From: an uncultured Acidobacteriota bacterium
GTDB lineage: Bacteria; Acidobacteriota; Terriglobia; Acidiferrales; UBA7541
Assembly: GCA_963792515.1 (NCBI GenBank)
Contig: CAWBWG010000007.1
Coordinates: 48,171 to 112,170 of the forward strand
Length of the DNA: 64,000 bases
Reading direction: 5' to 3'
Under the pieces are notes generated by a model, which saw nothing but the letters and a program-made list of their open reading frames with translations, was not told the DNA's origin and did no database searches. Each line of letters opens with the position of its first letter. Positions within the stretch are counted from its first letter, which is position 1. Below, piece by piece: positions 7,989 through 60,362 of the stretch. The position numbers and the translations under genes are program-made.

Positions 7989-8025
7989 GGCACTTGTCCG
8001 GTAAGGCGACTTACCGGGACTTTGG
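7989..8025 (+). repeat. array-specific hairpin repeat, copy A
   Basis: GGCACTTGTCCGGTAAGGCGACTTACCGGGACTTTGG. The stem GTCCGGTAAG/CTTACCGGGAC has one bulged G. It lies about 70 nt upstream of the 8098 gene. Confidence 0.8.
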
Positions 8026-8097
8026 ACCATTGCCGAACAAATAGCAGGCGTGGTCTAATTTGGGCCCTAGTCAGTAGACAATTCCAAGGTCCGGAAC

Positions 8098-8556
8098 ATG
8101 AACAAAAATGACATTCTCATCAATCTGTCCGAGTCTGAAAATACGAGATTTGGCAACGAAGAAGACTTTGCCCTTCAAACTCTTCCTCAGAAAGTCTTTT
8201 CGGCCATTTGGGCTGTCGAATCGGAAGTCAATAACGGCGGATTCTCCCAATACTTTTCCAACGACAGCGCGGAATCAGCATCATTCGTTGTGCAAGCTCT
8301 CGAAACAGTTGGTGCTCCGAGAACCGCGAATATTTGCAATCGCGCGATAGTCACGGCTTTTCCTGGTGGACTGCCAACGACGGTGGAAACTATACGCTCG
8401 GTCGCAGATAAATTCTCCAAAGAAATTCTCGCTGAGTTGGAGCCTCTAGACCAAGAGTTTTTCTCATACCCTCACAACTTGACAGACTTGCTTTTTACAT
8501 ATGTAAGTGCGCGCCCGGAGGAGTTCGGCCCACTGACGAAACCAGATGACGCTTAG
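8098..8556 (+). CDS. DUF4375 / DMP19-like domain protein (possible immunity-type protein)
   Basis: 152 aa. The core IWAVESEVNNGGFSQYFSNDSAESASFVVQALETVGAPRTANICNRAI matches the family hallmark as I recall it (NNGGF.QYF). The gene is low in GC. Confidence 0.6.
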   Translation: MNKNDILINLSESENTRFGNEEDFALQTLPQKVFSAIWAVESEVNNGGFSQYFSNDSAESASFVVQALETVGAPRTANICNRAIVTAFPGGLPTTVETIRSVADKFSKEILAELEPLDQEFFSYPHNLTDLLFTYVSARPEEFGPLTKPDDA

Positions 8557-8572
8557 ACGCTGCTGCTCAACT

Positions 8573-8647
8573 CCTGGTTAACGCGCTTACCGGAGAAGTG
8601 GAGTACCAGAATCCAGATGTCCGGTTAGGCGACTACCCGGACTTGAG
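8573..8647. repeat. array-specific hairpin repeat, inverted doublet B
   Basis: CCTGGTTAACGCGCTTACCGGAGAAGTG (a reverse-orientation unit), 15 nt, then GATGTCCGGTTAGGCGACTACCCGGACTTGAG (a forward unit). It sits between the stop at 8556 and the next gene. Confidence 0.75.
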
Positions 8648-8672
8648 AATCCATTCTTTTCATTTCGTCGGA

Positions 8673-9068
8673 ATGCGCATACGCTCGACTGCCGTGCCGC
8701 CCTACATAAAACCTATTCCATTACTCACTTCTCTACTATTTTGGGGCTATGTCGTCTGGGCGTGGGTTGTTTGGCGCGGATCGGCCGAAACCGTTCGGCC
8801 GAGATGGAGAGCAATCACAGTGGTTGCAGGGCTATATTGCGCCACAGCATCTACTATTCTTAATGCGTTTATGTTTGTCCATGCCGTCATCACTGGAGGC
8901 TACCCTTTCTATCATCCAGTGGAGCTGTTCTGTATTCGCGTCGGCAGCCTTACGGCCTTGCTCGGAGTCACGTGCTCGATTATTGGAAGAGGGAAACCCA
9001 GACTCCACATCGCCGTAATCTCGGTCCTGAACTTCCTGGTCTGGTTCGCGGACGCGATGGCGCAGTAG
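8673..9068 (+). CDS. small integral membrane protein, hypothetical
   Basis: ORF 8598..9068. The first 25 codons are translated repeat B, so the ATG at 8673 (MRIRSTAVPPYIKP..) is preferred. About four hydrophobic segments. Confidence 0.5.
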   Translation: MRIRSTAVPPYIKPIPLLTSLLFWGYVVWAWVVWRGSAETVRPRWRAITVVAGLYCATASTILNAFMFVHAVITGGYPFYHPVELFCIRVGSLTALLGVTCSIIGRGKPRLHIAVISVLNFLVWFADAMAQ

Positions 9069-9084
9069 GCTTCTGCCCTAATTC

Positions 9085-9160
9085 CTGAATAACGCGTAAA
9101 TCGGACATGAGGAGTGCTGGTACCGCAGTGTCCGGTAAGGCGACTTACCAGGCACTTGGT
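9085..9160. repeat. array-specific hairpin repeat, inverted doublet C
   Basis: CCTGAATAACGCGTAAATCGGACATGAG .. CAGTGTCCGGTAAGGCGACTTACCAGGCACTTGG, lying between convergent genes. Confidence 0.75.
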
Positions 9161-9173
9161 AACGAGGGATTCT

Positions 9174-9836
9174 TCATGACACCCATGTGCTGCGGCGATC
9201 AATAACATGCCACACGCCGCCTGTCCTGCGCATTAGAACGTACTCGCCACTACCACACAATCCCCCGCAAAAGTGGTCAACGTACAGTAGTGCCTCGGTC
9301 TTCCTCAGATTTAGCCCAACGTGCGAGACAACAAAATACCCAAAATTGTTCGGGAATCTCGCTTCAAAGTCGTTTGTTTTAGTCCATAAGATGTCGCTCG
9401 GGTTAACGAAAACCGCCCGAGCCCCGCTTGGCAGACGCAAGTTTGCGCTGATGTTTGTCGAAAATACGCTGTTCAGGAAGAAACTGGTTCGGGTAATTCG
9501 TGATGATTGTGCAAACCAGGCGTCTGAGACGGAACTCCATCGCGATTTCAATGATTGTCCAAACCAGGATAGTCTGTCGGGCCCATTTCCATCCACAGAA
9601 CAAATGAGACAAGCTGGATTGCGCAGAACGATAATCTCGATTGTGCGCCCTGCACCCCACTGGTCCATGTCGTGCAGGACTTCTTGCGAGAAAAATGCCG
9701 AGAGAACCTCACCCGTTTCTGCTTGTGTTCGCCTCTGCTCAACAGCAAAGAGGAGTCCAGCAACCGCAAGCAGGAGACCAATTCCAGTAGTCGCGTAAAG
9801 CACAATCCTTCTAAAGCGATTTAGGCTCATGGTCAT
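9174..9836 (-). CDS. hypothetical N-terminally membrane-anchored protein
   Basis: 220-aa ORF with a TM segment IVLYATTGIGLLLAVAGLLFAV. No recognisable domain. Confidence 0.5.
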   Translation of the reverse strand: MTMSLNRFRRIVLYATTGIGLLLAVAGLLFAVEQRRTQAETGEVLSAFFSQEVLHDMDQWGAGRTIEIIVLRNPACLICSVDGNGPDRLSWFGQSLKSRWSSVSDAWFAQSSRITRTSFFLNSVFSTNISANLRLPSGARAVFVNPSDILWTKTNDFEARFPNNFGYFVVSHVGLNLRKTEALLYVDHFCGGLCGSGEYVLMRRTGGVWHVIDRRSTWVS

Positions 9837-9884
9837 AAGACTGCAGCTTGGAGTGCCATTTTACCGCTCTTAGTCCTGTCAGTG

Positions 9885-9912
9885 CCTGATAAACGCGCAA
9901 ACCGGACAAGTG
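9885..9912 (-). repeat. array-specific hairpin repeat, copy D
   Basis: CCTGATAAACGCGCAAACCGGACAAGTG. Its reverse complement CACTTGTCCGGTTTGCGCGTTTATCAGG aligns with units A-C. Confidence 0.7.
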
Positions 9913-9917
9913 AAGTT

Positions 9918-10094
9918 TTAGCCGAGGGTCTTGGCATTGAAGGTGGCGAGTTCGTCATCTTCCACGGTAAAGCTGATCTCGATTGGTTTGCAGCATACCT
10001 CGCAGTCTTCGATGTAGGTTTGGCGGCCGACCGACAAGTCCAACACCATCGAAATTTCTTCCCCACAATATGGACAGGTGAATTCGTGTTCCAC
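9918..10094 (-). CDS. CPXCG motif-containing cysteine-rich small protein
   Basis: GTG start at 10094 gives a 58-aa protein: VEHEFTCPYCGEEISMVLDLSVGRQTYIEDCEVCCKPIEISFTVEDDELATFNAKTLG. The upstream part of track ORF 9918..10337 is Arg-rich and reads through repeat E. Confidence 0.75.
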   Translation of the reverse strand: MEHEFTCPYCGEEISMVLDLSVGRQTYIEDCEVCCKPIEISFTVEDDELATFNAKTLG

Positions 10095-10154
10095 TGAACG
10101 AGAAGATACTGCAATCGATCCGGCAGGACAACGGAAGCAGCAGTCGGCCAAGTG

Positions 10155-10219
10155 CCTGATTAACCTGCAACCGGACAAGTGCCAGCTGACTCCGCCTACG
10201 GGGCGTCTCCGGAAGTTGC
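10155..10219. repeat. array-specific hairpin repeat, copy E with a degenerate partner
   Basis: CCTGATTAACCTGCAACCGGACAAGTG (reverse complement CACTTGTCCGGTTGCAGGTTAATCAGG), followed by GGGGCGTCTCCGGAAGTTGC. Confidence 0.6.
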
Positions 10220-10290
10220 AAGCTCCATTAGGGACCCTTCGGTTGTGGAACGGTACCTGTCGAGGTGCGCGGAAACGTGGTACCAGATTC

Positions 10291-10974
10291 TTAGCAGAAC
10301 TTCGCGATAGCCCGGTAGGTTGCTTCGACGTGCTCAATTGAATTGGCTATAAACGGAAGCACTGATTGTCCGCCCTCGCGAAACCTAAAATCCACCCACG
10401 TCGTGACTTTAGTTGTGGCCACGCCGTTAGGCACCGGTAGTTGGGTTGTCGGGTCAATTGGAACGCCCATTACTTTGACATCGCCAGTAAAGGTCACTCC
10501 AGATCCCCACGATACCTCACCGCTCCCAGGCCGCGTGACCGTGACGCGTCGGGATTCCGTTCTGCTTTGTTCCACGAGGTCTTGGTGCTTGTTTTTATTG
10601 TTGAGGGCGTTGAACTGGCCAAGCCAAGGATCTCGGAACGGCTGCAGTGATTCGATGATTTCGAAGACGGGCTTGCAATTCGCTGCTAGTCCCGGATAGT
10701 CGTGCCCCATCACCTGCGCAAACTGGGTCGCATTGTGCTGGATCGGAAAGTACAGCCGGCGCGGTGTCCCCCCGGCTTTGCAGAATGCCTCATGCAACTC
10801 TTGGGCTAAATAATCAAGACACGAACGAAGGTCTTCGAAAATGTGTTTGATCTCGACCTTGAGGTCTTTGCGGACGACCTGTTCATGCAGCGACGCTTCG
10901 TAGGCTGCCTTCAGCTGAGCAAAATCCCCGCGCGACTTCCGGAGCAGGGCTTCGATACTCGTTTTACGTCTCAT
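10291..10974 (-). CDS. hypothetical protein
   Basis: 227-aa ORF with non-biased composition. No domain recognised. Confidence 0.5.
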   Translation of the reverse strand: MRRKTSIEALLRKSRGDFAQLKAAYEASLHEQVVRKDLKVEIKHIFEDLRSCLDYLAQELHEAFCKAGGTPRRLYFPIQHNATQFAQVMGHDYPGLAANCKPVFEIIESLQPFRDPWLGQFNALNNKNKHQDLVEQSRTESRRVTVTRPGSGEVSWGSGVTFTGDVKVMGVPIDPTTQLPVPNGVATTKVTTWVDFRFREGGQSVLPFIANSIEHVEATYRAIAKFC

Positions 10975-11113
10975 CTATCCCAAGTCCTCTGCGGAACTAC
11001 GGCAGGCTTGAATATTGCTCCAGGAGATGAGCGCCAGAAATTCACTTCGTCCGCGGCAACTTTGGACGCGTGCAATCGGAACCAATCATAATCGGTGACC
11101 GCGACAAAGAAAT

Positions 11114-12094
11114 TCATCGAGCGACTCTCAGCAAAACGGCGTTGCGGTGAAAGTCAAGAAATTGTCGCTGGCCCTCAGTGAAGGTTCCGACGTTGATCAG
11201 CCGCTCGGTCTCGACTCCCATACTCTGCAACGAAGGTTTGTGAGCGACCGGCGAGATGATGAGAGTTCCGGAATCCTCAAACCCGATAAATCCGCGGTCG
11301 AACAAATGGTCGATACTAGGCGTCAAGAGTAGGCCGTTCTCGCCATTGAGACGCTCTTCGTTTGAGGAATCCCGCCAGGGCTTGCAGTGGCTGGCCAGAA
11401 GGTGAATCGGATTATCAACACCCGTGATGCGGCAGCGGGTTTCAATTCGCATAACACGCTGCTTAAAAAGGCCTTGGCCACGCCGGGCCCGCACAATCGC
11501 CTCTCTGTCGGTCTCTTTCACGGATGTATCGCTTTCGACTTGTTGTTCGAGCTTGCGTTCCCAAACGTCCAGGTCGTCACCCGTCACGATTCTGCCACTT
11601 TCAAGGGCGACAGGAGACTCGGCAGCGGCGATCAGTGAGCGTGCCTCTTCTCCGATCAAACCGGCGAGGACCTCCGCGAAGCTCTGAGACAGCTCTGTCA
11701 AATAGATTGACTGGATGCCGTTTCCGTTAGGCTGGAGCGGTGAGTAGCGATCCGGCAAAACAGCTCTCAAAACCCCCATGTGATCTTTGGGGCGGATTTT
11801 GTTCAAGACCTGAGAAAACGAAACGTTCACTCTCCATCCGATATTTTCCCAATTCTGCCCCACAGAGCCAAACTCAGTTGGTTTCGGACACTCCCAGCAA
11901 TAGGATTTGGCGATTCCGATGGCGGCGACTCGAGTATCTGCGAAAGAAAAGATCAGGTCGCCCGGCGAAACCTCTCGCATCGACTCGTAGAATGGATTGC
12001 GAGCGCCGTTAGCGTTGCGTTTTGGAGACCAGAGATAGCCGCCCGCGATCTCTTGGCGGAATGTTTGATTCTGGTTGACCCACCAATAACGCAT
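11114..12094 (-). CDS. HNH endonuclease (HNH_2-type) with an N-terminal PUA/EVE-like module; candidate modification-dependent restriction enzyme
   Basis: The ATG at 12094 (MRYWWVNQNQTFRQEIAGGYLWSPKRN..) is preferred over the 12280 extension. The C-terminus reads RCRITGVDNPIHLLASHCKPWRDSSNEERLNGENGLLLTPSIDHLFDRGFIGF, an HNH_2-like pattern. Confidence 0.7.
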   Translation of the reverse strand: MRYWWVNQNQTFRQEIAGGYLWSPKRNANGARNPFYESMREVSPGDLIFSFADTRVAAIGIAKSYCWECPKPTEFGSVGQNWENIGWRVNVSFSQVLNKIRPKDHMGVLRAVLPDRYSPLQPNGNGIQSIYLTELSQSFAEVLAGLIGEEARSLIAAAESPVALESGRIVTGDDLDVWERKLEQQVESDTSVKETDREAIVRARRGQGLFKQRVMRIETRCRITGVDNPIHLLASHCKPWRDSSNEERLNGENGLLLTPSIDHLFDRGFIGFEDSGTLIISPVAHKPSLQSMGVETERLINVGTFTEGQRQFLDFHRNAVLLRVAR

Positions 12095-12307
12095 CCCGAC
12101 TCCGTGCGTCGAAGGAAGCAAGGATTTCCATCTCGGGCTCTCGGCCGACTTTGGAGAATACACTACATGAACTCTTGGTGGACACATGTAGGGCAGCAGT
12201 GAAAGACACCGATGTTCGACTTGTCCGGCCGACAGAACCGCACGGCTGCTGATCCTCCATACAGTGCGGCAGAGTAGCACGACCGTTAATATCCGCCCGC
12301 CTGTATA

Positions 12308-12990
12308 ATGGCCGTCGTGAAGCTCGAACAGATCGAGGAGTTACTGGCGGCGGAAGAGTCCGAAACGTTGGAGCGAAAGCAGGGCCTGGACAGAGAGGGC
12401 CTTTGCAAATCGATGATCGCTTTCGCAAATGACATGTACGGACGCGGTTGTGGCTGGGTGATCGTTGGGCAGGCACCGGATAAATCCTTCGCTGGTCTTC
12501 AGGTGGGAGACGACGAAGCGCAGCGGATCATTTCAGACATCGCGAGAGACCGATGCACGCCAGCTATTCCCGTGTCTGTTGAATGTTTCCTGAAAGATGG
12601 TAAGAGGCTCGCAATCGTCGAAGTTCGCGCGAGTCCTGCGCGGCCTCATTTCGCCGGTAAAGCGTGGGTACGGATGGGCAGCACCACCCGTCAAGCCACG
12701 GACGCTGAGATTATTCTTCTCCGGGCGGTTGAGGAGAATCGCAAGATCGCTATACTGAAACGATGGTTCGACGAAGGCAAGACTACGGTTGTTCTCTGGC
12801 AAATGGCCGCACCGGGTCAAGACTTCGCGCGGTCACCTGGGTACAGCAGGTAAAACTGTTGGAAGTCAATCAGAACTGGATCGTGGTTTACGCCGGCAGC
12901 ACGAGGCGCGCTTTTCCATACGATGAATTTAACGTCGGCTGGGATCCGGAGCAAGACCTTCCCCAGATCCGATACCACGGTGGACGGTAG
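12308..12990 (+). pseudogene. AlbA_2 (Schlafen-type) DNA-binding domain protein, probable frameshift near 12825-12835
   Basis: ORF 12308..12853 reads EESETLERKQGLDREGLCKSMIAFANDMYGRGCGWVIVG.. . ORF 12763..12990 continues plausibly as VTWVQQVKLLEVNQNWIVVYAGSTRRAFPYDEFNVGWDPEQD. Span is 683 nt = 3n+2. Confidence 0.6.
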
Positions 12991-13046
12991 CTGGAGCTTA
13001 GGTCCCATCGTTCGGCGGAGTCTCGAATCGACGGCGGCGCTTATGG

Positions 13047-13316
13047 TCAGATATGACCAAATAGGTCCGACAGGCTCTTCCTCAGTCCCTTGGCGATCTT
13101 CTCGATATTCACGAGCGACACGTTCCTGATCCCGCGCTCGACGCCGCTGTAGTACGTCCGATGCAACCCGCATCGCTCCGCAGCCTCTTCCTGATTGATC
13201 TTCTGCTCTTCGCGTATGCGGCGGATCGGGCGGCCGCAAACGGCTGCAGACACTCTAGTGGTATCGCGTCCGAACTGCGACCGACGATGATTGCTGTCAG
13301 AAGAACGCGCGACCAA
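13047..13316 (-). CDS. XRE-family helix-turn-helix transcriptional regulator
   Basis: ..IRRIREEQKINQEEAAERCGLHRTYYSGVERGIRNVSLVNIEKIAKGL.. Confidence 0.75.
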   Translation of the reverse strand: MVARSSDSNHRRSQFGRDTTRVSAAVCGRPIRRIREEQKINQEEAAERCGLHRTYYSGVERGIRNVSLVNIEKIAKGLRKSLSDLFGHI

Positions 13317-13328
13317 GAACGCAGGATT

Positions 13329-13544
13329 TCACAGGCGCGACATGAGTTTTGAGATGGTCATGCCGAAAGCAGAGGCGAGTAGTTCGAGATTGCGAATACA
13401 AATTTCTTTTCTGCCATTTTCCAGATCCGAGATGAAACTGCGGTCCATACCGACATACTCCGCCATGTAGACCTGTGTCCACTCCCTCTGCTTGCGAAGG
13501 GTGCGTATCCGCTTTCCAAATCGGACACAGATATCGCTCGACAC
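13329..13544 (-). CDS. XRE-family helix-turn-helix transcriptional regulator
   Basis: FGKRIRTLRKQREWTQVYMAEYVGMDRSFISDLENGRKEICIRNLELLASAFGMT. Confidence 0.8.
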   Translation of the reverse strand: MSSDICVRFGKRIRTLRKQREWTQVYMAEYVGMDRSFISDLENGRKEICIRNLELLASAFGMTISKLMSRL

Positions 13545-13607
13545 GCCTCCAATTATGGCTGTAGGCTTTCGCCGATAAATCGGCTATAGCCGTCAGAGCT
13601 TGCAAGA

Positions 13608-14579
13608 ATGGTGCACGAACCCAAACAACCGCAAGGCCATGGGAATCGGTGGCTCAGAGGTTTGGTGATCGGGCTTGCGGTCGGCGCTGTGCTGGCCTAC
13701 GTCGTGATGTCACGCGCGCGTCGCCCCAACGCGCCTCTCGGGATTGCCGTCGAGAAGTATATTCCTCCACAGACCCTGCGGCTTTTAGACGGGAACATGC
13801 AAGATTTCGGCGAACTCCAGATACTGACGAATGGAGGCGTCATGCTAAGTCTTTGGGACGCGGAGAACGAGCCATTAATAGATTTTGCGGCGATCGAGAC
13901 TGTCATGCTCACCATCCACCAAAGACAGTCGGAATCGTCGCACCTAAGCTATCTTGTCGTCCTCATGGAGCCGGAGCCCAGTTTTTCGATGAGCACTCCG
14001 GACGGAAAACATTTTTCTACACCAAGCAAGAGCCGGGACCGACACTCCTTTCCCGCGGCACTTGCGATCTCGGCTTATCACGGTTTTTTTCCGGAAAAGC
14101 CGGAAACAAGGCTTGATGAAGTCGTGCCTTCTGAAGACCTGCGGCTGGTGAACAGGAATCATGAGCTGCTCGCGGTATTAGGGCTATCGGAGGCGGGGGA
14201 ACCTTCCATAGCCTTGACTCACAGTGACGGGCGCTTGCTCGCAGTTTTGTCTATCACTTCGCCTGACCCTTTGGGGCTAGGCGGGCCTAAAGAGTGGCCC
14301 ACGTTAGTTCTGTACGACAGGCACGGCAGCCAGCGTGTAGAAGTGGACTTGGGACCGGATGCAACGCCCGCGGTTATGATTTCAGAAAAATCGGACCCGA
14401 AAAATCGAACGGATTTGGGGGCGTACGCACTTGATCCGCAATCTGGCAAAGAAGTTTCTGTAGGACTTTTCGACCACAAGGCGGCCGCTATTCCTTGGCT
14501 GTCACATGCGATGCGCCGCATCCCCCTGCCTGTGGTGGTCGTTGACGAGCGCGGCCAAGCCCTTTGGAGGACGCATTAA
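13608..14579 (+). CDS. hypothetical membrane-anchored protein
   Basis: 323-aa ORF with a TM segment LRGLVIGLAVGAVLAYVVM. Lower-GC region, no domain recognised. Confidence 0.5.
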   Translation: MVHEPKQPQGHGNRWLRGLVIGLAVGAVLAYVVMSRARRPNAPLGIAVEKYIPPQTLRLLDGNMQDFGELQILTNGGVMLSLWDAENEPLIDFAAIETVMLTIHQRQSESSHLSYLVVLMEPEPSFSMSTPDGKHFSTPSKSRDRHSFPAALAISAYHGFFPEKPETRLDEVVPSEDLRLVNRNHELLAVLGLSEAGEPSIALTHSDGRLLAVLSITSPDPLGLGGPKEWPTLVLYDRHGSQRVEVDLGPDATPAVMISEKSDPKNRTDLGAYALDPQSGKEVSVGLFDHKAAAIPWLSHAMRRIPLPVVVVDERGQALWRTH

Positions 14580-15921: not shown

Positions 15922-16636
15922 GTGTCAAATGAACTCGCAAAGGCTCGGCGCAGTGGGGAACCTATTGGCAGCGAGAATGGGAAGCTGTCCGCGCGTGACG
16001 TACAGCGCGCGTTCGACGGCACGATCGCGTCGGCCTGTGCGCTCGGGATCAGCCTCGAAGACTTCCTCGAACTGGTTCGGTTGGCCCGAACCAGCGATCC
16101 GAGAGCTGCGCGATTCCTTGAAGCCTGGGAGACTCTCGACGCCTCCGAACAGCAGTCTAGCGGAGCGGCCGACGCGGTGTGCGGACAGATTGGGCTCAAT
16201 CCCGCCGAGCTGCTCCGGACCGTGGCGCACGAGGCGATCAACTTCTCGAAGTGCGTAGCCGAGACTGTGACCGCTCTGGCCCTGCCATCTGTAGTCGCAT
16301 GCAGCGAGTTCAGGATGGCTCTGACTGACGACGGAACTGCCGACCGCAAGATGCTGTTCCAGCACACGGGCTTTTTGCCGACGCCCAGGGGCTGGCGCAC
16401 CAACGTCTTCATCGCGCAGAACGGTCAGTCAGCCGGGACGCCCGTATCGTTGCGGCACCGCAGCCAGAACATACGATTCGACAGTTGGCTGAGGCGTTCA
16501 ACAGGTCGCGCGGGATGCCCTCCACCGCACGGATGCCGGCGCCGATGGCAGACCCTACGACTCTCCTCGGTGCGACACCCGCTCGCGAGGATGTCGCTTC
16601 CTTCGACACTGACTGCGAAGACGACGATGGCACATA
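15922..16636 (+). pseudogene. hypothetical (phage/plasmid-like) protein, probable frameshift near 16420
   Basis: MSNELAKARRSGEPIGSENGKLSARDVQRAF.. reads well up to ..FIAQNGQS. Another frame then continues as VSRDARIVAAPQPEHTIRQLAEAFNRSRGMPSTA..DVASFDTDCEDDDGT to a stop near 16634-16636. Confidence 0.3.
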
Positions 16637-17473
16637 GGCGGGAGCCCAGAGAGAGGAGCCTTCCGTGCGCAGCGAGATGAACTGGAACCGCGTGCGCCGA
16701 GCTGGGAAACTGCTCCGCGACGAGGTAGCGGGGGATCTGCCGCCGATGCTGCGTGGCCTAGCGTGGCAACAATTCCAGCAGCTACCGTTGGCGCGCGCTG
16801 CCTGCCGGCTGATGGAGCTCCTGGAGCCGCCGCGATCGGCAACGCCGGCCTCTATTGCCGGAGCCCCCACCGCCCTGCCGACGCAGGCCTTTTCGCGGAC
16901 ATCCCATCGCTCGATCAACGTGGAACCGCCGAGAAAATTTAGCCGAACTGTGTAAGCGCCACGCTGACCGCCTCCCATCCAGCCCTTGGCTACTTCCCAT
17001 CCTGGCTGGCCGAGCGCGCGACCTCGCGCTTCACCCGGACGCGCACGGTTCCGATCGCGGCCGTCGAATGCGCCGCATCAAGGGCGGCAAACATGTTCAG
17101 CGCCGCTACCGTGAAAAGGGTTGGCACCCGCTCGCGTCGGTGCGGAAGGCTTGGGGATTGAGCGCGGAACGCCCGGCGATGGACGCGGACGAGTCAACCG
17201 CGGCCAAGCTATGACGAAACGTCGTCTAGGCCTACTTCGCCCCGTATGCGCGGTGAAACAGGACTGCGCGAGGTTTCCGGGTGACCCATTACCGTAGGTG
17301 TGGCCACCTGTCCGGGATGAGTGAGACGATGTCTTAGGGCATGCCGCGGCCTTCGGCACGTCAATTTTCGAAGATGTGGCTGACACGGTTCGTGAGCCCG
17401 ATCCGGCCTGGAACGGCGCCCAGGTTCACTGGACCGCGGGGGATGTAATCGTGCGGACTCTATGCCTCGCGAT

Positions 17474-17626
17474 CTAGCTTTGTGGCGGCGTCTGCGGCGC
17501 CGGCGGTGCGCTCGGTGATGCGGGAGTCGCCGGCGGGCGTCGGTACGGTGATTTCTCGGGCGCCGGTTTGACCTTGTCCCGTTTCGGCTTCTTTACCTCG
17601 CGGCCTCGCTTATCTCGGTTGCCCAT
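17474..17626 (-). CDS. small Lys/Pro-rich basic protein (50 aa), hypothetical
   Basis: Not in the ORF track because it is under 60 aa. ATG at 17626 preceded by GAGGAG. Sequence MGNRDKRGREVKKPKRDKVKPAPEKSPYRRPPATPASPSAPPAPQTPPQS; TAG stop codon at 17476-17474 on the minus strand. Confidence 0.35.
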   Translation of the reverse strand: MGNRDKRGREVKKPKRDKVKPAPEKSPYRRPPATPASPSAPPAPQTPPQS

Positions 17627-17810
17627 GACTCACTCCTCGTCGTGCTTGATGTGATCCCATGATACTCGCGATTCCGAAGGCCTGCCCCACGGGACTCCGG
17701 AGAGTGGGTGAAGCGCAGCCAAATAACGGAATAGCTTCCGTCGCGATTCAGCCATCAGAACCGCGATGTGAAACCGCCTGTAAGCTCTGATGGAGAACAT
17801 CGCGACATTC

Positions 17811-17999
17811 TGGAACCGAATTCGGATCCTCTTCGTTCTTCGTCGTTTATGAGTTTATATACCCTGGAACTTGCGGCGAAACGCTTCTGGAACTTGGAAC
17901 CTGTGAAGTTCCACGTTCCACCGACCGTTCCAACTCAATCGGAACCTCTCAGGTAATTGATTTCGTTCGAGTTTCGCTCAAAAGTACGTCCGGGTTCCA
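17811..17999. repeat. TGGAAC/GTTCCA site array (iteron-like; candidate replication origin or operator)
   Basis: Perfect TGGAAC at 17811, 17865, 17888 and 17895. Perfect GTTCCA at 17908, 17915, 17927 and 17994. A CGGAAC variant is at 17940. The core 17888-17920 is a 33-nt inverted repeat, TGGAACTTGGAAC-ctgtgaa-GTTCCACGTTCCA. An AT-rich stretch cgtcgtttatgagtttatata lies at 17841-17861. Confidence 0.75.
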
Positions 18000-18008
18000 G
18001 CCCAACCG

Positions 18009-19007
18009 CTACCCGACCTTCTTGAACGTCCCATTGTCGCACCTTACAAGTATGCCGAGGCTCAACGTGGCCTTCGTGAGTCGGGACAAGCTTGAGCGTG
18101 GCACGGTTTTATCCGCGATGTCTTCAAATTTGAACTCTTTCGGCAGTTTGTCCCAATAATTTCTTTGAGCCTGCGAGAGGCTCCGAAGCAAATTGAATTG
18201 ATCCGCGGTGACTTGCTCAAAGCCAGCGAGTTGATCGTCCTTGTCCGCGACGGGTCGAATCAAGATTGGGTGCATTTCTCGCCCGCGAACGATGCCATTT
18301 ATCACTCGAACCTCGTCGTCCAGCATGTCGATCCCCAGCCGTGCGTCGGATCGGTTCACTATATCTAGCGAGCCGGACACTTCTTCGAGCCAATCCCTCG
18401 CGTCCGAAAGCAAGTCTGCCTTTACGCCCCTCCGGTCCTTCTTGCGAAGATTGAACGTACCGAGGATTGCCCCGTGCGGAAACCTAGCCAGGATTTCTCT
18501 CAATTTTCGAAAGAGCCTTAGGACCTCCGGTTTTTTCGTGGTATCCAGTTGGAAGAGCATTTCCACGGGATCTACCAGAACGATTGCATTGGGCTTCGAT
18601 CTGAGCGCCCTCTCGATCAAGGCCAGTTTCGAATCGTGTCCCGGCTCAGTTGTGGCCTTCAACAGTGCCTCTGTACTCGATTCGGTTAGGTAGTCACGCT
18701 CTAGGTACACATCCAGTTCACTGGGCACGCGAGGTACGGGGACTCCGAGTCTGCCCGCGATAACTTCGATCGTTTTCTTGTAGTCTGGACCGGGAGTTTC
18801 GCAGTCGAAGACGATGACAGGCCGTCGCTGCACCCTCCGGCCGCACCAGTTTAGGCCGTGGACTAGTCTGACGGTGAGATCAGCTAAAACCGGGGATTTG
18901 CCCATCCCAAAAGGGCCGGCAAAGGCGGCTAGCTCACCTTCGCGAAGCAATCCGTCGATCAACTCAGGTCGTTCTTCACGGTTCCGCTCAAAAAAGGATC
19001 TGGCCAC
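18009..19007 (-). CDS. RecA-fold AAA ATPase (AAA_25 / RepA-like)
   Basis: ..ELAAFAGPFGMGKSPVLADLTVRLVHGLNWCGRRV (Walker A), PVIVFDCE, NAIVLVDPVEMLF. A GTG start at 19007 is preferred, because the first 56 codons of track ORF 18009..19175 overlap a clear HTH gene in another frame. Confidence 0.7.
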   Translation of the reverse strand: MARSFFERNREERPELIDGLLREGELAAFAGPFGMGKSPVLADLTVRLVHGLNWCGRRVQRRPVIVFDCETPGPDYKKTIEVIAGRLGVPVPRVPSELDVYLERDYLTESSTEALLKATTEPGHDSKLALIERALRSKPNAIVLVDPVEMLFQLDTTKKPEVLRLFRKLREILARFPHGAILGTFNLRKKDRRGVKADLLSDARDWLEEVSGSLDIVNRSDARLGIDMLDDEVRVINGIVRGREMHPILIRPVADKDDQLAGFEQVTADQFNLLRSLSQAQRNYWDKLPKEFKFEDIADKTVPRSSLSRLTKATLSLGILVRCDNGTFKKVG

Positions 19008-19008
19008 G

Positions 19009-19185
19009 TCACTTGAACCTTGAGAGAAACTGACGAACAACGTCGGGGTCGAACAATAAGCGACGGCAAATTCGAGTAGGTTTGAGCGCACCTTTTCGGA
19101 CCCAGGCTCTGACTGTATGGGGCGATACTCGAAGTCTGTCAGCGAGATCACGCAAGGTGAGCAGTTGGGGAACACCGTCAGACAT
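19009..19185 (-). CDS. HTH_17 / excisionase-AlpA-like DNA-binding protein (58 aa)
   Basis: My translation from the ATG at 19185: MSDGVPQLLTLRDLADRLRVSPHTVRAWVRKGALKPTRICRRLLFDPDVVRQFLSRFK; TGA stop codon at 19011-19009 on the minus strand. Confidence 0.7.
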   Translation of the reverse strand: MSDGVPQLLTLRDLADRLRVSPHTVRAWVRKGALKPTRICRRLLFDPDVVRQFLSRFK

Positions 19186-19188
19186 CGC

Positions 19189-19359
19189 TCAATCCTTTGT
19201 TTTCAGCCTGGCTTCGACCGCCTCAACAGGAATGCGCCAACGCTTTCCGACCTTGCGGCCCACCAGCTTTCCAGTCCAAAGCAGCGAGTACAAATAATCG
19301 AGCCCGACGCCGAGTCTGCGGGCCGCTTCGATTGCGCTCATTTCTGTTTGTTTTGTCAT
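19189..19359 (-). CDS. HTH_17 / excisionase-AlpA-like DNA-binding protein (56 aa)
   Basis: ATG at 19359 preceded by AAGGAGG: MTKQTEMSAIEAARRLGVGLDYLYSLLWTGKLVGRKVGKRWRIPVEAVEARLKTKD. Confidence 0.7.
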   Translation of the reverse strand: MTKQTEMSAIEAARRLGVGLDYLYSLLWTGKLVGRKVGKRWRIPVEAVEARLKTKD

Positions 19360-19584
19360 ATTCCTCCTTGACAGTCGCGATGCTACTCCTTACCCTAATG
19401 CTCGTGCAACGTGGCCATATCAAGACCGTAACAGAACTTGCCGTTCTGGTGCCCTGCGATGCGAAGGACAAAGACGGCTTAGCGACATTTCTGTCGGAGT
19501 TGGCCGGAACTCAGCCGGTCCGAGTTGTTACTCTGGGTGATCTCAAGTCCGATCCACGCAAAATTTAAGCAAGCGCTGAGTACG

Positions 19585-20193
19585 ATGTGGGACTACGAAC
19601 GGGTGCAGTTCGAAGCGGTGGTCGCCTTACTCAGCGCGTTGCGAAGAAAAGACAAGCTGGCAATCAGCCGCGCCCGAGGCTTCGTCACGAACGCACTCGC
19701 GCTCAAGCGAGAAGGGGACAGGAGACTCGGCATTAGCCCGGCGCTAGATGATGACCTAGATTTTGGGCGGGTTCTTATTCATGTTTTTGGCCTGGAGCCG
19801 GGACAGGAGAAGGAAGCCATTGAGCGGTGGAACGGTTACCGTCACGGTCCGAAAGCGGATGCAAACCATCGGTGGCTACTATCGCAGCTAATGTCTGAAG
19901 CGCTCGATTCTGTGCGTTTGGTGCTCTGGTCGTCGGGAAAGCATCTTCGACCTGCGCTCTACTGCCCTCAGGCCAAGGCCGCTCTTTACGCGATGCTCTT
20001 GATGAAGATCGCCGCTGGGCGGGGATGGGGAGTGTGTCCGTATTGCGGTCAGTTCTTTGCTCAAAAGCGTTCCGACCAGAATTACTGCACGATTGCACAT
20101 CGTGAGGCGCATCGAGTAGCACGGTGGCGTGCAGCGAGAGTATCGCAATCGAAACAGAGAGGCGGGTCATATGGCACTCGTAAAACGCGGTAG
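19585..20193 (+). CDS. hypothetical protein with a C-terminal CPYCG..C..AH zinc-ribbon-like motif
   Basis: ATG at 19585 within ORF 19525..20193. The C-terminus reads WGVCPYCGQFFAQKRSDQNYCTIAHREAHRVARW. It overlaps the integrase start by 23 nt. Confidence 0.5.
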   Translation: MWDYERVQFEAVVALLSALRRKDKLAISRARGFVTNALALKREGDRRLGISPALDDDLDFGRVLIHVFGLEPGQEKEAIERWNGYRHGPKADANHRWLLSQLMSEALDSVRLVLWSSGKHLRPALYCPQAKAALYAMLLMKIAAGRGWGVCPYCGQFFAQKRSDQNYCTIAHREAHRVARWRAARVSQSKQRGGSYGTRKTR

Positions 20194-21400
20194 GACGTGG
20201 CACACACAATTCTACGTTAACGGTGCTCGCTACCGACAGTCGCTTCGCACAACCGACTGGCGCGAAGCGCTTCAGCGCGAGAAAGAACTGATCTCGCAGG
20301 CGAGTGTCGGGAAGCTCGCGCCGTCGAGTCAGCAGTTCGCCCGACTCGCCTTTTCCGTGGCGGCGGATCGATACATCGAAGATCGTAAGGCCTATCTGGC
20401 GCCTCGAAGCGTGCGTACAGAACAAGAGCGCCTGAAGGGTCTGCGATTATTCTTTGGTGCGACGCCGTTAACCCGCATCAGTTCGGACTCGGTTCGAGAA
20501 TATGTCGCCAAGCGCAAGAACGCGGGACTGAGCAATCGCACGGTGAATATGGAGACTGGCTGCCTTGCTCGCGTTCTAAAGAGGGCGAAACGTTGGCATC
20601 TGATCGCAGAGGATATAAAGCCGCTGCCCGAGGGACGGAGCGTGGGTAGGGCATTGACGCATGAAGAGAAAGTGAAGCTACTAAAAGCTGCTGCTCGCAA
20701 ACCAGAGTGGATGCTTGCGCGGCTTGCTGCAATCTTGGCACTGAATACCACGATGCGAGGGTGCGAGATCCGCGGACTACGATGGTGCGACGTCGATTTC
20801 ATAGAACGGACACTCACCGTGCGCCGAAGTAAAACACAGGCGGGGGAGCGCGTGATTCCGCTCAACGGCGACGGGTGGGGAGCGATTCTCGAGTTACGGG
20901 AGAGAGCAAAACAGCTTCTCGGCGTCGAGCCGCGCTCCCAGTGGTTTGTATTTCCTCATGGGGAGGGGCAAGGGCCCGTTACCCACACGAAAACGAGACC
21001 TGGGCCAAAATCGGTAACTGTGAAACCCGACCCAACCAAGCCTATGATTTCGTGGCGGACGGCATGGCGAAAAATTGCCAAGGAAGCCGGACTCCCCGGG
21101 CTGCGGTTTCATGATCTCCGGCACCACGCCGTGACAGAGCTTGCCGAGGGGCAGGCCAGCGATCAAATAATACGGTCGATTGCGGGGCACGTTTCACTTC
21201 GAATGCTAGAGCATTATTCTCATATCAGGTTGGACGCCAAGCGCAAGGCGCTTGATGCTCTCTCAGGTGGACCACCGGACTCAGTTACGACACAACTCAC
21301 GACACAAATTTCGAATCGATCGCCGCAAGCGATTGAAAAGAATGGCGGGGCCGACGGGGTTCGAACCCGCGACCTCCTGCGTGACAGGCAGGCGTTCTAA
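20171..21400 (+). CDS. tyrosine recombinase / phage-type integrase
   Basis: The ATG at 20171 gives MALVKRGRTWHTQFYVNGARYRQSL (typical integrase N-terminus). Catalytic pattern: CEIRGLRWCDVDF (Arg), LRFHDLRHHAVT (HxxR), GHVSLRMLEHYSHI (Tyr). The last 58 nt of the ORF run into tRNA-Asp on the opposite strand. Confidence 0.9.
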   Translation: MALVKRGRTWHTQFYVNGARYRQSLRTTDWREALQREKELISQASVGKLAPSSQQFARLAFSVAADRYIEDRKAYLAPRSVRTEQERLKGLRLFFGATPLTRISSDSVREYVAKRKNAGLSNRTVNMETGCLARVLKRAKRWHLIAEDIKPLPEGRSVGRALTHEEKVKLLKAAARKPEWMLARLAAILALNTTMRGCEIRGLRWCDVDFIERTLTVRRSKTQAGERVIPLNGDGWGAILELRERAKQLLGVEPRSQWFVFPHGEGQGPVTHTKTRPGPKSVTVKPDPTKPMISWRTAWRKIAKEAGLPGLRFHDLRHHAVTELAEGQASDQIIRSIAGHVSLRMLEHYSHIRLDAKRKALDALSGGPPDSVTTQLTTQISNRSPQAIEKNGGADGVRTRDLLRDRQAF

Positions 21401-21420
21401 CCAAGCTGAACTACGGCCCC
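21343..21420 (-). tRNA. tRNA-Asp (anticodon GTC)
   Basis: The reverse complement folds as GGGGCCG TA GTTC AGCTTGGTTA GAAC G CCTGC CTGTCAC GCAGG AGGTC GCGGG TTCGAAC CCCGT CGGCCCC G CCA. Confidence 0.9.
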
Positions 21421-21452
21421 GTTGTACTTGTACGGCGTCACTTTTGCGGTGA

Positions 21453-21528
21453 TGGTGGGCGGTCAGCGATTTGAACGCTGGACCTTCCCGGTGTAAGCGG
21501 GATGCTCTAACCGCTGAGCTAACCGCCC
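21453..21528 (-). tRNA. tRNA-Val (anticodon TAC)
   Basis: The reverse complement folds as GGGCGGT TA GCTC AGCGGTTA GAGC A TCCCG CTTACAC CGGGA AGGTC CAGCG TTCAAAT CGCTG ACCGCCC A CCA. Confidence 0.9.
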
Positions 21529-59233: not shown

Positions 59234-60362
59234 CTAGGCTTCCTGCTTCTTCAACAGCACGACTGAAGTAGTGAAGTAGATAAGAGCGAGAATAAGGAGC
59301 GCCACAATGTCGCGCCACAGTGCCGCAAAGCCGAGCGCTTTGGTAAAGGTACCGACGCAGATCGCCTGAAAGTAGGTGCTGGGGAAAATTCGCGCTGCGA
59401 TGCGGGCACCACCGGTGAGCGAGGAAGCCGGCACGAACATCCCGGAAAACTGCGTGGCCGGAAGAATAGTAATGATAGCGGCCGCGAAAATCGCCGCCGT
59501 TTGCGTAGTCGCAAACACCGAAATCAGCAGGCCGAAGCCCGTGCTAGCGAGGACATAGATCACGCCACCCAGCACAAGGGTCGCAAGACTACCCTTGAAT
59601 GGAACCTGGAACATGAAGACTGCGAGTGCGACCAGAGCACTAAACTGAATCAGCGCAACCGCGAGGTAGGGCAATTGTTTGCCGAAAAGAAATTCGAGGC
59701 GGGTGGCCGGAGCCGCATAAAAGTTGGCGATCGAGCCCAACTCCTTCTCGCGCACCACGCTTAACGCGGTCAACATGCTGGGAATGAGAATCAGGAGGAG
59801 CATGATATCGCCGGGCACCAGCGCATAGATGCTCTTGAACGCCTGATTGAACAGCGCCCGCGCCTCAAACCGCACAGGTTTCTGGAGCGGTGGAAGCCCG
59901 CGCGCTTTGCGTAGCTGCGTGAGATAATGGTCGTGAACGCTTTCGACGTAGCCGCGAGCCGTCTCGGCCCGAAACGGTATTGCGGCGTCGAGGATCAGGT
60001 TTATCTCCGGCTGTCGGTTGCGCTGTAGGTCGCGCTGGAACGCGGGCGGAATCTCGATCGCAAGGCGCAACTCGCCATTGCGTAGACGACGGTCCAAATC
60101 GCCGTAACTCCGCAATGGTGCATGCTCAGTGAGGTAGTACGAACCGCGATAGCTATCGATATAATCGCGGCTGGCAGGCGTATTATCGGAATCGAAGCAC
60201 CGCAAACGGCAGATGATCGATGTCGAGTGAGATGCCATAGCCAAATACGATCATCAGGAGAATCGGACCAAAAATCGCGAATGAGAGCCGAACGGTGTCG
60301 TGCTGCAGCTCGACCGCTTCACGCCGTGCAAACGCCCATATGCGGCCCAGGCTGAAGCGGCT
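59234..60362 (-). pseudogene. ABC-2 type transporter permease (YbhS-like); N-terminus lies in the tail of the ATPase ORF, frameshift near 60197
   Basis: The tail of ORF 60183..61979 reads [55 protein letters not shown] (a permease N-terminus). ORF 59234..60244 continues [45 protein letters not shown]... No separate start codon was found. Confidence 0.7.

Follow-up and report, generated by a model that had tools for sequence, protein, structure and literature searches.

We analysed a 64,000-nucleotide (nt) stretch of contig CAWBWG010000007.1 (hereafter the window) from an uncultured Acidobacteriota bacterium, which holds a tRNA-integrating island with a minus-strand operon of two HTH_17/excisionase-family genes and one gene for a predicted RecA-fold ATPase (Pfam AAA_25). 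Directly past the stop codon of the ATPase gene lies a dense array of the hexamer TGGAAC and its complement GTTCCA. We found that this array recurs in the same layout beside relatives of the ATPase in soil bacteria and that its word tracks the predicted DNA-reading helix of the ATPase. Hence, the array is most likely the replication origin of the element.

The hexamer array past the ATPase gene

The features that carry the argument are listed below, in window positions.

17811-17999, no strand: iteron array, defined by its coordinates and statistics, with counterpart arrays in relatives
17888-17920, no strand: palindromic core TGGAACTTGGAAC-N7-GTTCCACGTTCCA, the dyad-symmetry centre of the array
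17836-17864, no strand: AT-rich segment, candidate DNA-unwinding element, 66-72% A+T, with hexamers 17811 and 17865 as bounds
18009-19007, minus strand: 332-residue ATPase (AAA_25, E 6.6e-16) with predicted RecA fold and C-terminal winged helix, the proposed initiator-helicase 'Rep'
18012-18212, minus strand: region coding for the C-terminal winged helix, residues 266-332, with the AlphaFold2 secondary-structure order H-E-H-H-E-E
18060-18098, minus strand: predicted recognition helix, residues 304-316, in which S305 is the specificity-linked residue

A first-pass annotation of the window had reported eight exact hexamers and one CGGAAC variant, and we found each of them where it had been placed: TGGAAC starts at 17811, 17865, 17888 and 17895, GTTCCA at 17908, 17915, 17927 and 17994, and CGGAAC at 17940. 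To these we add a second one-mismatch site, GTTCGA at 17965. Fewer than one copy had been expected by chance; with the rest of the window as background, we computed 0.13 exact copies per 189 nt, so that eight copies have a Poisson P(≥8) of 2.2e-12. The two words occur 53 times on both strands of the window relative to 26.4 ± 4.9 in dinucleotide shuffles, and nowhere else does a 189-nt span hold three or more copies. Among 1072 control windows of 250 nt from related loci, the commonest hexamer stood at 7 copies in only one.

The palindromic core and the AT-rich patch of that annotation were borne out as well. The 33-nt core has 13-nt arms that are 92% complementary (one mismatch) with 7 nt between them, and the patch at 17841-17861 is 71% A+T relative to 42% for the window; the 25-mer from 17836 (72% A+T) is the AT-richest within 17600-18100. 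In the window, both sites that bound the AT-rich segment have the same orientation. The distance of 10 nt between stop codon and array was essentially right, at 9 nt: the stop codon occupies 18009-18011 (minus strand) and the nearest hexamer 17994-17999, so that the array begins there when read along the minus-strand gene.

Along the gene direction, the order is the distal site, GTTCCG, three TGGAAC, GTTCCA-N1-GTTCCA, and further GTTCCA. The GTTCCG, which is CGGAAC at 17940 on the plus strand, occupies a conserved single-site position 13 nt ahead of the first left-arm site. Preferences in the flanks indicate that the iteron unit is really about 8 nt long, bTGRAACY. An open reading frame (ORF; 17768-17956) across the array was rejected, since the spacings of the sites (7, 11 and 13 nt) are not multiples of three and rule out a coding repeat. 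A TGGAAC-N1-TGGAAC pair at 59600/59607 (59600-59612) lies far outside the element in apparent coding sequence and was judged to be chance.

The array, its word and the ATPase in related elements

Homologues of the ATPase formed 116 clusters with 39-100% identity, all AAA_25 wherever a domain was recorded. A single-protein scan of genome contigs gave one close relative, an alignment-based scan of metagenome contigs gave 80 loci, and viral contigs gave two more. The comparison set was 49 non-redundant loci (numbered with an L below) with 36-69% protein identity, from metagenomes and one Acidobacteriota metagenome-assembled genome (MAG). A search for the array beside homologous ATPases had been proposed as a check on the first-pass annotation, and its outcome was strongly positive: in 41 of the 49 loci, a single hexamer occurs five or more times (median 7) within the 250 nt past the ATPase stop. 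Its density is 26.3 per kb there and 0.63 per kb in these loci outside that segment, and any hexamer occurs at least five times in only 12 of the 1072 control windows.

We found that the layout is conserved along with the position across branches of the ATPase. In the 39 loci that could be anchored on the dyad, the upstream half holds TGxAAC at -100 to -80 (near the stop), GTTxCA at -50 to -31 and then two or three TGxAAC. The downstream half holds two or three GTTxCA, TGxAAC at +30 to +39, an AT-rich stretch at +40 to +79 and one or two final GTTxCA at +70 to +99. A+T content at +40 to +79 is 0.61-0.69 relative to a background of about 0.41. Sites of the same orientation prefer spacings of 7-8 or 11 nt, and where GTTYCA is followed by TGRAAC, the two are 13 nt apart in 37 of 58 cases.

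The hexamer is lineage-specific, whereas the spacing pattern is kept. We found TGGAAC, TGAAAC, TGACAC (L017), TGAACT (L066, L077) and GGGAGT (L047, L053, L054), and within one element all copies change together. Such concerted change is the mark of sites for one element-encoded protein, rather than of a host-factor site or an RNA helix.

The array is linked to the ATPase rather than to the integrase or the HTH_17 genes. The ATPase gene is its sole constant neighbour; the integrase gene lies upstream or downstream, and there are none to two HTH_17 genes, among other small genes. A natural exchange separates these neighbours. L021 and L053/L054 share 86-91% DNA identity through tRNA-Leu, the integrase gene and the gene for an identical 76-residue HTH_17 protein, to about 40 nt before the ATPase start. 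Past this breakpoint, the ATPases are 47% identical and the arrays are built of TGAAAC (L021) and GGGAGT (L053/L054). This comparison indicates that the proposed rep-ori cassette has been exchanged as a unit.

The AlphaFold2 model of the ATPase (predicted local distance difference test 91.5) has a RecA-like core and, C-terminal to it, a canonical winged helix with elements H279-287, E291-293, H294-297, H304-316, E320-322 and E327-330. The alignment column with the highest mutual information on TGGAAC versus TGAAAC is S305 (z 7.8), which the model places at the N-terminus of the third helix (304-316) of the winged helix. We found Ser at this position in 12 of 14 TGGAAC loci and Ala or Gly in 15 of 18 TGAAAC loci. 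The predicted recognition helix reads VPRSSLSRL in the window, and the rare hexamer classes (VPH[ST]SLDRL, VPRKTLARI and [IV]PRSSL[DH][GY]L) alter S305 or its neighbours (R304H, S305K, R309G/Y). Since the ATPase is the constant neighbour, the natural swap separates array and HTH_17 protein, and the S305 column falls in the modelled winged helix, the protein that binds the hexamers is most likely the ATPase, through its C-terminal winged helix, and not an HTH_17 protein.

Within the TGAAAC class (e.g. L074, L052, L011), the G variant is biased in orientation over the first 260 nt past the stop (p 8e-5): the sense strand carries TGGAAC 21 times versus TGAAAC 52 times, and GTTCCA 6 times versus GTTTCA 92 times (G variant 21/73 versus 6/98). 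These G variants are mostly the two innermost left-arm sites, and RNA folding does not explain the bias, which may reflect a position-specific preference. Two small proteins accompany the ATPase in relatives, and neither is in the window. One, conserved in many of these relatives and encoded directly before the ATPase (L011, L017, L021, L029, L033, L053, L059, L066), bears the motif (F/Y)(Y/W)G...(E/I)...F(E)(A/D)G; the other, present in some, is SpoVG-like (L018, L024, L059).

The ATPase has replication proteins among its relatives. Invariant in 34 sequences are G31, G36 and K37 (Walker A, GxxGxGK), D68, E70, D146, N186, R219, D221 and R223; Walker A, the motif-1a Asp/Glu, Walker B, the motif-3 Asn and an R-x-D-x-R block are thus all kept. 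Together with the predicted RecA fold, it has the full set that marks an SF4/RepA-DnaB-like core (Walker A, motif 1a Glu, Walker B, motif 3 and Arg finger). The best Foldseek matches among viral models (E 1e-17 to 1e-13, TMq ~0.6) were bifunctional primase-polymerases, primase-polymerase/helicases, Prim-Pol/TOPRIM-AAA proteins and proteins labelled 'replicative DNA helicase'. A tblastn search found streptococcal and enterococcal phage genes for 'replicative DNA helicase' or primase (23-27% identity), and the PHROG matches were primase/helicase families; PADLOC gave no match for the ATPase. According to work published in 2022 on the helicase of a lactococcal phage, a related protein, AAA_25 proteins are RecA-like in look, had no described function and cluster with RepA/DnaB-like families (PMC8965321). 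A literature search for AAA_25 together with integrase or excisionase returned nothing relevant.

The island that carries the array

The array is carried by a tRNA-integrating island of the Acidobacteriota bacterium, whose remaining module features are these.

17635-17810, no strand: non-coding DNA beyond the array, with 99% identity to the sister element (L001), ending exactly where window and L001 diverge
19009-19185, minus strand: HTH_17/excisionase-family gene, 58 residues, directly upstream of the ATPase gene (HTH_17 E 6.5e-11; TIGR01764)
19189-19359, minus strand: HTH_17/excisionase-family gene, 56 residues, first gene of the operon, assigned by family match
20129-21400, plus strand: tyrosine integrase gene (Phage_integrase, E 2.6e-24), its 3' end running into tRNA-Asp
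21343-21420, minus strand: tRNA-Asp(GTC), the integration target, with the element on its 3' side (tRNA call and comparison with L001)

The integrase gene is divergent from the minus-strand HTH-HTH-ATPase operon, and tRNA-Val and tRNA-Asp together occupy 21343-21528 (minus strand); in most relatives, too, a tRNA adjoins the integrase gene. The public gene call gives the ATPase 388 residues from a GTG at 19175, which masks the 58-residue HTH_17 gene in another frame. Homologues have 330-350 residues and start at the position of ATG 19007. Hence, the 388-residue ORF is over-extended across the second HTH_17 gene.

L001, the related Acidobacteriota MAG, has the same module: 21600-17635 is 96.8% identical and the chromosomal flanks are 84-90% identical, whereas the cargo between 17635 and about 8026 differs. 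The non-coding 17635-18008 is 99% identical in L001, and the downstream non-coding 17215-17810 is kept in the nearest relatives only. An imperfect hairpin at 17740-17806, within the stretch distal to the array, has a fold that is not significant (z -1.5). An ORF at 17630-17800, which starts directly past the last hexamer, found no support: both of its differences from L001 are non-synonymous and it has no homologue elsewhere. A search of the window for an attachment repeat found no copy, 11 nt or longer, of the 3' end of tRNA-Asp, and the 8026 boundary showed no clear repeat; hence, the ends of the element are defined only through comparison with L001.

A 31-nt hairpin-forming repeat, TGTCCGGTAAGGCGACTTACCGGGACTTTGG, has three copies (7995-8025, 8618-8648 and 9129-9159; 71-100% identity). 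The first copy ends where homology to L001 resumes (8026), at the far boundary of the island, and L001 has a copy at the same place. The cargo at 8098-14579 looks defence-related, with a DMP19-like gene (8098-8556), a CPXCG zinc-ribbon gene (9918-10337), an HNH type II restriction-like nuclease gene (11114-12280) and a gene for a Schlafen AlbA_2 protein (12308-12853).

A plus-strand gene at 15922-17214, which runs towards the ATPase operon, appears to be split over three overlapping frames (15922-16680, 16665-16955 and 16855-17214). It matches a 344-residue protein without Pfam domains (L007 3772-4806, minus strand), which is encoded just past the array in about 10 related loci; in the window it may be frameshifted; alternatively, the gene may serve the module as an accessory. 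Between the integrase and HTH genes, a plus-strand ORF of 222 residues (19525-20193) matches no family; its C-terminal part contains the motif CPYC...C...H. The ORF is conserved in L001 (90%), L067 (74%) and L018 (38%), and L086 and L088 have a domain-less gene of 210-247 residues at its position. Among the ORFs scanned with Pfam, PHROGs and PADLOC, we found no capsid, terminase, relaxase, coupling-protein or phage-interference family, and no Rep_3-type protein was matched.

The candidate origin, rival readings and known systems

The first-pass annotation had called the array the origin or a multi-site operator of the integrated element. Its recurrence beside ATPase relatives supports that pair of readings; the choice of origin over operator is one that we infer. 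We consider it fairly probable that the array is the cis half of a rep-ori cassette, with the RecA-fold ATPase as proposed initiator-helicase, and so the origin from which the element itself would replicate. In this reading, several ATPase copies would bind the dyad-symmetric site cluster through the winged helix, each reading about 8 bp (bTGRAACY), and would oligomerise into rings. The rings would melt the neighbouring AT-rich segment (17836-17864), and the ATPase would load itself as replicative helicase on the excised circular element. Because no primase gene was seen, priming would be left to the host, with host primase and polymerase doing priming and synthesis.

Several observations weigh against this reading. 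The best Foldseek matches in the PDB are RAD51/RadA recombinases (E ~1e-11, TM ~0.5), which points to a RecA fold, and not DnaB or RepA; a sequence profile run against the PDB matched no solved helicase, RepA, DnaB or Rep structure. With only generic recombinases matched there, the helicase label derives from the viral model neighbours and annotations. ORF scans of the element and its relatives showed no primase gene, no complete contig was circular, and PLSDB plasmids contain no homologue of the ATPase. The window array itself is off the family consensus, with a displaced third right-arm site and, ahead of the AT patch, none in inverted orientation. Relatedness confounds the S305 covariation; the core-domain tree gives only about four independent concordant switches, and there are three exceptions (L006, L025/L032, L036), each with other changes in the same helix; hence, the covariation is suggestive and not proof. 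Finally, the array is followed at a short distance by a co-directional gene or by the integrase gene in several loci, so that a regulatory role stays in play.

Such a role, in which the array is a multi-site operator or regulatory platform and the ATPase or another element protein controls cargo or integrase transcription or ends the rep operon, is in our view unlikely. It fits a ribosome-binding site and start codon within about 50 nt past the last hexamer in L006, L016/L020 and L080, and an integrase gene that starts 280-650 nt past the ATPase stop in L017, L050 and L059. The AT-rich stretch could also hold a -10-like element (TATATAA in the window), and the distal hexamer is part of the one weak terminator-like hairpin that a terminator scan returned (18005-17990). 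However, the downstream gene varies in family and orientation, and the next gene is convergent in L006/L007 and L086; in L006/L007, array and AT patch have a stop codon on either side, the two genes being convergent, and this position speaks against a simple promoter-operator role. A scan of 17300-18300 for sigma-70-like promoters found none, and neither the promoter of the HTH-ATPase operon nor the rest of the loci has a hexamer cluster. The protein, too, speaks against an operator: it is a predicted RecA-fold NTPase with all catalytic residues conserved and replication proteins as relatives, which to our knowledge is not a transcription-factor design. A sigma-54 arrangement was rejected, as an enhancer-binding protein with upstream activating sites (no Sigma54_activat match, RecA fold) and as a promoter at 17865, where TGGAAC is directly followed by TTGC and the spacing is wrong for GG-N10-GC.

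Three other roles have lower probability still. Plasmid partition sites, too, are laid out as arrays of short repeats with a cognate binder and an adjoining NTPase gene, and the present array could be centromere-like, or a packaging or transfer site, with the ATPase as DNA-bound motor or adaptor; the missing primase gene would suit this. We think it quite improbable, since partition NTPases are of the ParA, ParM or TubZ types and not RecA-fold, no second partner protein is conserved, the scanned ORFs revealed no capsid, terminase, relaxase or coupling-protein gene, and the conserved, site-bounded AT-rich segment would have no role. That the hexamers are integrase arm-type sites or HTH_17/excisionase sites shaping the attachment (att) complex is very unlikely, although two excisionase-family HTH_17 genes and a tyrosine integrase gene are in the same module and excisionases bind short repeats. 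Integrase arm sites are found no more than a few hundred bp away from the att core, whereas 3.3 kb separate the array from the tRNA-Asp end and about 9.8 kb from the boundary near 8026 (1.6-3.5 kb from the tRNA in relatives). Some relatives, among them L068 and L024, have no HTH_17 gene near the ATPase, and the swap pair L021 and L053/L054, with an identical HTH_17 protein and near-identical integrases yet different hexamers, has largely refuted this reading already. We give equally little credence to a structured RNA or single-stranded DNA, a hairpin or cruciform whose arm changes are compensatory base pairs. The array folds better than shuffles (z -3.15), arm complementarity survives the hexamer change, and the orientation bias of the G variant in the TGAAAC class would give G.U pairs on the sense strand. 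Nevertheless, all 8-10 sites share one word, including same-orientation neighbours and distal copies, as no helix requires; the spacers lack complementarity, folding is no better on the sense than on the antisense strand (43 loci, p 0.22), and Rfam has no match in window 16500-19500.

The preferred reading, a rep-ori cassette, has its nearest counterpart in staphylococcal pathogenicity islands (SaPIs) and other phage-inducible chromosomal islands. The first-pass annotation had likened the array to SaPI origins; set against the published account (PMC9371898), the comparison holds for the count and place of the iterons and may hold for the AT-rich region and the winged helix. In SaPIs, the rep gene is directly followed by 6-12 penta- or hexanucleotide iterons, which flank an AT-rich region and face opposite ways on its two sides; Rep recognises them through a winged helix of its C-terminal domain, and their sequence is island-specific and matches the cognate Rep (PMC9371898). 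Here, too, the carrier is an integrase-bearing chromosomal island and the proposed initiator is itself an NTPase with a predicted C-terminal winged helix. Count and place of the iterons agree (8 exact and 2 degenerate hexamers from 9 nt past the stop), and the word differs between islands, tracking the ATPase. The AT-rich stretch is central in SaPIs, whereas here it lies beside the main cluster, bounded in the family by TGxAAC and GTTxCA. SaPI Rep is an AAA+ protein of superfamily 3 (SF3) with no detectable homology to the RecA-fold AAA_25 ATPase, the scanned ORFs yielded no primase, packaging or interference genes, and the host phylum is Acidobacteriota. Given the different motors, the window cassette would work like SaPI Rep-ori as an analogue and not as a member of the family.

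Similar designs occur in other replicons. The alpha protein of the satellite element P4 joins an origin-recognising C-terminal domain to an NTPase motor and reads 8-bp direct and inverted repeats; Ziegelin et al. in 1993, as cited in PMC8965321, reportedly dealt with phage P4 alpha and its type I iterons at ori and crr. The window cassette resembles it in the proposed union of recognition and motor in one polypeptide, in short repeats of both orientations and in being part of an integrative element. P4 differs in having a primase domain, an SF3 helicase and a second cluster (crr) several kb away, as opposed to a RecA-fold core, a single cluster and no primase domain here. SV40 large T antigen and papillomavirus E1 use 5-6-bp words, an inverted cluster beside an AT tract, a DNA-binding domain on the helicase and head-to-head assembly. 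Both proteins belong to eukaryotic viruses, have SF3 AAA+ motors and bind the origin through an unrelated domain; the likeness is in design only.

RepA of RSF1010 (IncQ) and phage helicases of superfamily 4 (T7 gp4, lactococcal F13 GP46) share the NTPase core of the RecA-fold, hexameric-helicase type. In IncQ plasmids, a separate RepC reads 20-bp iterons and priming needs RepB'. The window protein differs in that the predicted DNA-binding domain is fused to the ATPase, the iterons are hexamers, and a profile search gave no match to solved RepA or DnaB. In iteron-type theta plasmids (Rep_3/RepA-WH), initiator sites lie beside an AT-rich unwinding region and are recognised by winged helices (PMC2440964; see also PMC4980987). 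Those origins have direct repeats of 17-22 bp and an initiator without NTPase that recruits the host helicase, whereas the units in the window are 6-8 bp in both orientations and nothing there matches the Rep_3 family.

Joined together, these points would describe an uncharacterised family of self-loading initiator-helicases, RecA-fold AAA_25 proteins with an iteron-reading winged helix, that would have converged with the AAA+ SF3 Reps of SaPIs, P4 and small DNA viruses. They would serve widespread replicative tRNA-integrating islands in Acidobacteriota, read a simple and partly legible code (Ser versus Ala/Gly at 305 for G versus A at iteron position 3) and be swapped with their origins as units. 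For this joint picture we put the chances at about even.

If the cassette is a working replicon, one branch of AAA_25, a large family that is mostly uncharacterised, would gain its first function, origin recognition plus motor. The design of initiator-helicase, winged helix and hexamer iterons would then have arisen on a RecA-fold scaffold besides AAA+ SF3. We know of hardly any replicative vectors for Acidobacteriota, and a literature search for genetic tools in Acidobacteria returned nothing relevant; a compact rep-ori unit of about 1.4 kb from this phylum (17.6-19.0 kb of the window) could seed such tools. The finding would be of moderate interest to replication biology and to Acidobacteriota genetics, where five natural iteron classes and a swap pair would provide material for a protein-DNA recognition code and for replicon incompatibility.

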